DNA of 31,754 nucleotides, taken from positions 1-31,754 of IMG/VR virus record IMGVR_UViG_3300034523_000112, one strand, 5' to 3'. This document shows, one piece after another, positions 3,356 through 3,515 of this stretch (position 1 is its first letter; each line of letters opens with the position of its first letter). Position numbers and translations under genes: made by a program. The notes under the pieces are model-generated. The model saw nothing but the letters and a program-made list of their open reading frames with translations. It ran no database searches and was not told the DNA's origin. Source of the stretch: a virus. Taxonomy: Duplodnaviria > Caudoviricetes.

Positions 3356-3515
3356 GACAGTGGTCCTGCTGAAAATGGTCAGCCAGCACCCGGCGTGCGT
3401 CGATGCCGCACGATGCCGACAGCTTGTAGATCTGGCCGAAGGTGGTTTCCCGGCGCTGCAAGGCGTTAAACAGCTCGATCAAACGCTGGGCCTTGGTACC
3501 GTTGCAGCGGTTCAT
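3348..3515 (-). CDS. Small 55-aa phage protein
   Basis: Manual [62 protein letters not shown] overlap upstream, overlaps the next start. Confidence 0.7.
   Translation of the reverse strand: MNRCNGTKAQRLIELFNALQRRETTFGQIYKLSASCGIDARRVLADHFQQDHCRA

Follow-up and report, generated by a model that had tools for sequence, protein, structure and literature searches.

An RNA-guided VIPR system carried by a Pseudomonas prophage appears to be directed at the prophage's own close kin. The best explanation overall, and one we consider quite probable, is that its guide B silences an operon of related phages by reading the common allele of a small coding site, and that the altered copy of this site at home, the KL allele, is likely spared. 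The window, meaning the whole 31,754-nt stretch analyzed, is a lambdoid Pseudomonas prophage adjoined by the start of mutS; scores of a guide on its own phage ("self") refer to the window, which may be shorter than the whole phage. VIPR itself, the skipping of wobble positions, and a lower match to self are already published. What is new is the specific pair, a guide on sibling prophages with a diverged copy of its site at home.

Architecture of the VIPR locus

Left of cI, the minus strand carries a LuxR-like gene, two repeat tracts, the vipr and vap-like genes, a CsrA-like gene, a 93-aa gene, a 55-aa gene, an HNH gene, an 82-aa gene, excisionase, and integrase, in that order (Table 1). The vipr product matches SUSP1 Vipr (PDB 36pp) over residues 1 to 193 (phmmer, E = 1.8e-39), and its H17, K33, R39, K82, R137, D176, Y177, and R178 are the counterparts of published functional residues; the RAMP-like protein of type II VIPR, with its G-loop and thumb residues, is thus present. 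The next gene, which overlaps the vipr stop and has homologues 3' of vipr in 47 of 51 loci, is a vap-like gene standing beside vipr, as in type II systems. Each tract comprises 11 units before a GGGCT junction, within the 9 to 16 GGY/NN units of type II VIPR, and the structured 3' tail, from GGGCT to a CAGCG hairpin, is common to other Pseudomonas arrays. Read from the minus strand (5581-5527), the units of tract B are cacGC ggcGA gccAT ggtGC ggcTA ggcAT ggcTG ggtCT ggtAA ggcGT ggcAT, and the eleven dinucleotides are those listed in the initial annotation. One-base-skip targets of at least 80% are found in other mobile elements, for guide B on a wobble alignment and for guide A in non-coding DNA, and self scores stay under 80% (17/22, or 77%, for guide B; 15/22 for guide A). 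By its sequence features, the locus is a type II VIPR and tract B is a vrRNA guide of that system.

Table 1. Features of the VIPR cassette and its surroundings in the window
Feature	Position	Strand	Remark
Integrase	1293-2279	-	
Excisionase	2291-2485	-	Same strand as, and downstream of, the 55-aa target gene
55-aa gene, PHROG 22608/8961, KL allele	3348-3515	-	Most relatives have AM
Self copy of the guide B site	3415-3446	+ (non-target strand)	17/22
Diverged copy of the guide A leader	4204-4279	-	Retains the hairpin and the ribosome-binding half; guide footprint absent (local best 13/22)
vap-like accessory gene, 156 aa, PHROG 5926	4280-4750	-	Adjoins vipr in nearly all related loci
vipr gene, 194 aa	4747-5331	-	Homology to SUSP1 Vipr; published functional residues kept
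vrRNA A tail with hairpin	5355-5408, ends approximate	-	
vrRNA A repeat tract (guide A)	5409-5463	-	Reads the leader 3' of the LuxR-like gene in relatives
vrRNA B tail (GGGCT, CAGCG, long hairpin)	5464-5526, ends approximate	-	As in other Pseudomonas arrays
vrRNA B repeat tract (guide B, tract B)	5527-5581	-	11 GGY-NN-type units, the last scaffold-like
Tail-like leader hairpin 5' of the first guide	5587-5628	-	Present in related VIPR arrays
LuxR-like gene	5629-6018	-	VIPR cassette lies 3' of it, the place of the guide A target in VIPR-less relatives
cI-like repressor	6174-6953	-	

The window Vipr shares 53% identity with a group of 188- to 189-aa proteins (L176) whose numbering fits the published R136, D175, and Y176, so that it probably falls outside the >90% P. 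fulva clade. Both tracts (5527-5586 and 5409-5463) are predicted to fold back, with non-GGY units of the 5' half pairing with later GGC units, and whole-RNA folding of the two vrRNAs, tails included, gives z scores of about -4.2 and -4.8. No Rfam family was found on the array; elsewhere in the window, Rfam identifies a Proteo-phage-1 RNA (RF03044) at 15174-15252. A pattern scan of the minus strand from the array to the integrase found no terminator-like site, which fits, weakly, a single leftward transcript, and a promoter scan performed at chance level. A VIPR with three guides is also present in P. aeruginosa phage LESphi2 (OQ594955, 4403-5945), where it is annotated merely as hypothetical proteins and where Vipr is 90% identical to that of the window.

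The common allele of the 55-aa gene as the target of guide B

A gapped near-match of tract B in the phage's own 55-aa gene, skipping codon wobble positions, had been noted in the initial annotation and called suggestive rather than proof. Both statements hold. With a one-base skip, the best site for guide B in the window is the self copy, with 17 of 22 bases and 7 of 11 dinucleotides identical, and the skipped bases are the third codon positions of the 55-aa reading frame (TTFGQIYKLSA). The reading direction agrees with the rule given in the methods of the discovery paper, in its available text (10.64898/2026.04.26.720920). Shuffled guides reach at least 17 somewhere in the window in 31 of 2000 cases when the order of dinucleotides is shuffled and in 30 of 2000 when bases are (about 1.5%), so that the self match taken alone is merely suggestive. 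Under skip rules of 0, 2, and 3, the best site in the window is at most 15/22, nothing above background, the tract on itself excepted. As a counter-result, adding one more upstream unit (ggcAT) brings the self site to 17/24, a score equalled by a site at 1909-1943 within the integrase gene.

The relatives provide the decisive evidence. Of 118 homologous clusters, 72 have A and then M or I at residues 31 and 32 and only 7 have KL, and the common allele (…QIYAMSA) scores 20/22 with guide B. The better-matching A-(M/I) variant that the initial annotation predicted therefore exists, and is the family consensus. A query with the 55-aa gene retrieved 56 loci, from which the distant L063 was dropped. 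Over the remaining 55, which include duplicates because some prophages are present in both collections, guide B scores 20/22 in 41, 19 in 6, 18 in 2, and no more than 17 in the other 6. When 500 shuffled guides were run over the same 806,517 bases, the maximum was 19 and none reached 20, which bears out the earlier proposal that the guide is aimed at the homologue in related, competing phages. The wobble positions vary among the 41 sites at 20/22, which comprise 26 distinct 32-mers; the proposed blindness to synonymous change thus stands, as an instance of the published general VIPR rule. Searching 401 Pseudomonas genomes yielded 13 matches to guide B with no more than three mismatches, 12 of them in the 55-aa gene, and a Vipr match was found in none of the 12 family-matching genomes. 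The reversed pattern, used as a control, matched in 0 of the 401; a further 12, more distant family matches in this set score 14 to 18.

Two mismatches are left on the common allele, one a U·G pair and the other in the scaffold-like 3'-most unit. Among 91 Pseudomonas guides, the unit before the GGGCT junction is AA in 56, AT in 14, AG in 10, and GA in 6 (86/91), and, in targets that fit well elsewhere, it matches at just 21 of 62 bases. Being nearly fixed and rarely matching, it behaves as scaffold. Once it is left out, the kin allele has 19/20 plus the U·G pair, that is, pairing is possible at all 20 positions, and self has 16/20 (80%). Counting this unit depresses VIPR match scores.

Could the match be due to chance, or the true target be an unrelated gene? 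Such a reading, which we regard as extremely improbable, draws on the self match alone (p about 0.015), on a search of viral contigs in which the full guide pattern had no exact match and thus no 22/22 target, and on one 19/22 match outside the gene family (G132). It does not account for the 41 of 55 loci at 20/22, a score never seen in 500 shuffles, nor for a second, differently spelled guide, that of L119, which reads the same site. An 8-unit partial pattern gave seven matches outside the gene family; these reach merely 17 to 18/22, five have a stop in the decoded frame, and all were set aside as chance. The 401-genome search and the scoring of 55 loci refute the chance explanation in practice, and the kin allele is almost certainly the target of guide B. 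The 55-aa protein itself has no Pfam family, no solved relative (best E = 0.24), and only Atlas matches below 0.9.

Guide A points to the same relatives. It reads a conserved non-coding leader directly 3' of their LuxR-like gene (at least 18/22 in 37 of 55 loci); 35 of the 55 have matches to both guides. In the window, the VIPR cassette sits where relatives have this target, and a leftover of the leader lies 3' of vap. The two guides thus point to one operon of the same relatives, with both sites altered at home. In most relatives, the leader (L012:9250-9310 and equivalents) contains a GCGAAAGCCAACAAC motif, a hairpin, and a ribosome-binding site. Its role could be one in antitermination or regulation; no Rfam family was found for it, and shuffled sequences fold just as well. 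L187, L119, and L020 apparently have guides to this leader too. In three VIPR-less loci (L061, L135, and L142), a hairpin resembling the array leader lies just 3' of the LuxR-like gene, which suggests a lost cassette.

Probable self-avoidance and the KL allele

The self copy differs from the common allele at three read bases, positions 1 and 2 of codon 31 and position 1 of codon 32. All three changes are non-synonymous, codons 10 to 49 otherwise equal the consensus in amino acid, and the changes cluster in the footprint (Fisher test, post hoc: p = 0.019 for bases and 0.07 for residues). Counted from the 5' end, the extra mismatches are in units 3 and 4, a long way from the point of first engagement given in the structure paper. 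KL is present in all three retrieved phages that carry guide B or its homologue, and AM in none; these carriers span two Vipr subclades that are just 54% identical. L020, L021, and L026, which have a VIPR without guide B, keep AM. In the near-twin L008, the same array scores 16/22 on its own gene. Its array and vipr are identical to those of the window and its cI is different (40% over 136 aa), so that the cassette-plus-KL block has moved between immunity types. L119 combines a Vipr 54% identical to that of the window, a homologous, re-spelled guide to the same site, and the KL allele; its guide scores 17/20 on its own phage versus 18/20 on AM, a margin of one base and above the papers' 80% cut-off.

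To place these cases, 91 distinct guides were compared with a pool of 104 loci. A non-self target of at least 18/20 is found for 25 guides, 6 of which have a homologous home site, and all 6 score lower at home. For the other 19, the retrieved home locus shows no homologous site, which makes lack of the site the main form of avoidance. One genome marked unpublished (G103), among the four Vipr genomes found in the Pseudomonas genome set, supplies two of the 91 guides, neither among the 25.

The claim that the clustered KL mismatches protect self was sustained in part. The three extra mismatches on self and the presence of KL in every retrieved guide carrier stand; protection is likely only, and the carriers form a single clade. 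On balance, we think it reasonably likely that self is spared through these mismatches.

A possible but doubtful alternative is that kin are indeed targeted and that KL arose by drift, or as escape from other phages' VIPRs, the guide being kept on a genome that it cannot harm. The KL genes of the three guide carriers group in a single clade within the AM alleles (84/98 support in a rough bootstrap), so that the association of guide and KL counts as one event. Conservation over residues 11 to 48 is lowest at 31 and 32 (0.71 and 0.68), which makes drift possible, and EM, EL, and AL alleles are found in loci without vipr in the retrieved stretch. The 19 of 25 targeting guides that lack a homologous home site point the same way. 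Yet KL is rare (7/118) and still occurs in 3/3 retrieved guide carriers from two Vipr subclades, and the three changes all fall on read bases. Drift or escape, moreover, would touch only the history of the allele and would leave its effect in practice unchanged. Conservation in the footprint is not significantly lower than elsewhere in the core (p = 0.18) and third-position variation is equal inside and outside it, neither of which supports selection. Further carriers of guide B or KL were sought in viral contigs, where one near-twin contig alone was found. In metagenomes, the KL pattern gave 10 matches, 8 of them unrelated and 2 in the 55-aa gene (L119 and L120, the latter sequence too short to reveal a VIPR).

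A second alternative treats the self site as a deliberate weak target, through which VIPR would damp its own xis-int operon in a feedback loop. Self equals kin over the seven 3'-most units, and the first engagement of Vipr is placed at the 3' end in the available text of 10.64898/2026.04.26.720927, so that partial self-binding is possible. The self score of 17/22 and the 85% match of the L119 guide to its own phage also agree with feedback. However, a score of 17/20 on its own retrieved locus is reached by just 1 of the 91 guides, the discovery paper, as far as its available text goes, gives no self hits of 80% or more (10.64898/2026.04.26.720920), the kin allele is the better fit to guide B, and guide A lacks a site on self. 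We therefore regard feedback as unlikely and retain the sparing of self as the preferred reading. As for how mismatches act, the word "mismatch" is absent from the available text of the structure paper, and in that of the October paper (10.64898/2026.10.15.759431) it occurs only in unrelated methods.

Same-site rivals and the predicted effect of silencing

The target gene lies upstream of the genes for excision and integration. A same-strand integrase match is found downstream of the 55-aa gene start in 53 of 55 loci, the distance being 0.3 to 1.2 kb in 52 and 3.7 kb in the other, and profile searches of some loci chosen by hand confirmed both excisionase and integrase. The integrase is at least 85% identical to that of the window in 20 of 55 loci, and mutS is in range in 14 of 55, whereas cI is at most 55% identical in 24 of the 28 related loci with a cI match in range. 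Near-identical integrase combined with different cI implies that many targets are same-site rivals outside the repressor's control.

According to the available text of the discovery paper, VIPR acts as a silencer through binding, which may be to either strand and may lie inside a gene (10.64898/2026.04.26.720920). We propose that Vipr with vrRNA B would bind the AM allele upstream of the rival xis-int genes and block transcription of the rival operon, with guide A presumably acting further upstream in the same operon. RNA processing, filament binding, and a silencing roadblock polar on xis-int are presumed by extension from the SUSP1 papers. With xis-int blocked, a resident rival would be unable to excise, or a co-infecting one to occupy the shared site. 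The position of the array within the leftward early operon makes infection or induction the probable time of its action. We lean slightly toward an effect of guide B that runs via xis-int; silencing of the 55-aa gene itself could also be relevant.

Targeting may also run in the opposite direction. The fourth guide of L026 matches the window at 11217-11248, the 3' end of a replication-initiator gene, at 21/22 with wobble bases skipped. L026 has the AM allele and a near-identical integrase beside mutS, and it and the window phage are predicted to be a reciprocal targeting pair. In addition, an L119 guide (3687-3736) matches the window vipr gene at 4885-4913 (16/20), and the vap region shared by L119, L026, and L021 is matched at 21/22 by a guide of L070; these may be VIPRs aimed at other VIPRs.

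Much of this is shared with known systems. As described in the available text of the discovery paper, which gives the skip rule and wobble alignment, the targets of the P. fulva clade lie in resident Pseudomonas prophages in 48 of 66 cases (10.64898/2026.04.26.720920). Like that type II VIPR, the present one belongs to a Pseudomonas prophage, combines a vrRNA array of GGY/NN units with vipr and vap, skips one wobble base, has prophage targets, and matches self below 80%. The P. fulva targets given there are mainly lysis-lysogeny regulators, whereas here one target is a small gene by xis-int with a diverged home copy; the Pseudomonas targets of that paper (Data S3, Fig. S15) may include the 55-aa gene site.

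The available text of the competition paper reports that satellite excision is blocked and that vrRNA-targeting guides match self less than rivals, and makes no mention of Pseudomonas (10.64898/2026.10.15.759431). As with the SUSP1 VIPR against F5 satellites, a wobble-blind guide reads a conserved coding site that controls, or here may control, the competitor's excision. SUSP1, as described there, is a lytic phage that hits the satellite recombinase directly, while here a temperate phage reaches sibling prophages upstream of xis-int. Self-avoidance of SUSP1 and solo vrRNAs concerns non-coding vrRNA loci, in contrast to the amino-acid-changing bases in the phage's own homologue seen here; within the available text of the VIPR papers, we found no description of such self-escape.

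Related phages are also suppressed, and self spared, by lambdoid cI immunity and by CRISPR arrays that phages carry against rivals. VIPR differs from both in that recognition relies on a gapped RNA guide instead of an operator-binding protein or a contiguous spacer, and, unlike cI, its guide reaches phages with a different cI.

It is conceivable, though we hold it only tentatively, that the VIPR cassette and KL form a self-marking module with immunity-like dominance across cI groups, and that AM, EM, EL, and KL are stages of a race between guide and escape. Self-marking would fit guides that both read features kept by siblings at the mutS site and changed in the carrier. A race would fit the re-spelled L119 guide, which reads E/D at codon 31, with phages paying in amino-acid changes. 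Since the system and its main rules are published, the value of the present locus is that of a specific, testable case. Guide B faces the natural alleles AM at 20, AL or TI at 19, EM at 18, KL at 17, and KL-SE at 16 of 22; together with a second guide variant, they offer a natural, near-complete test set for the mismatch tolerance of VIPR and for how a phage may aim at close kin while sparing itself. With one predicted reciprocal pair, VIPR may be a route of mutual suppression for temperate phages that share an attachment site and not a repressor.
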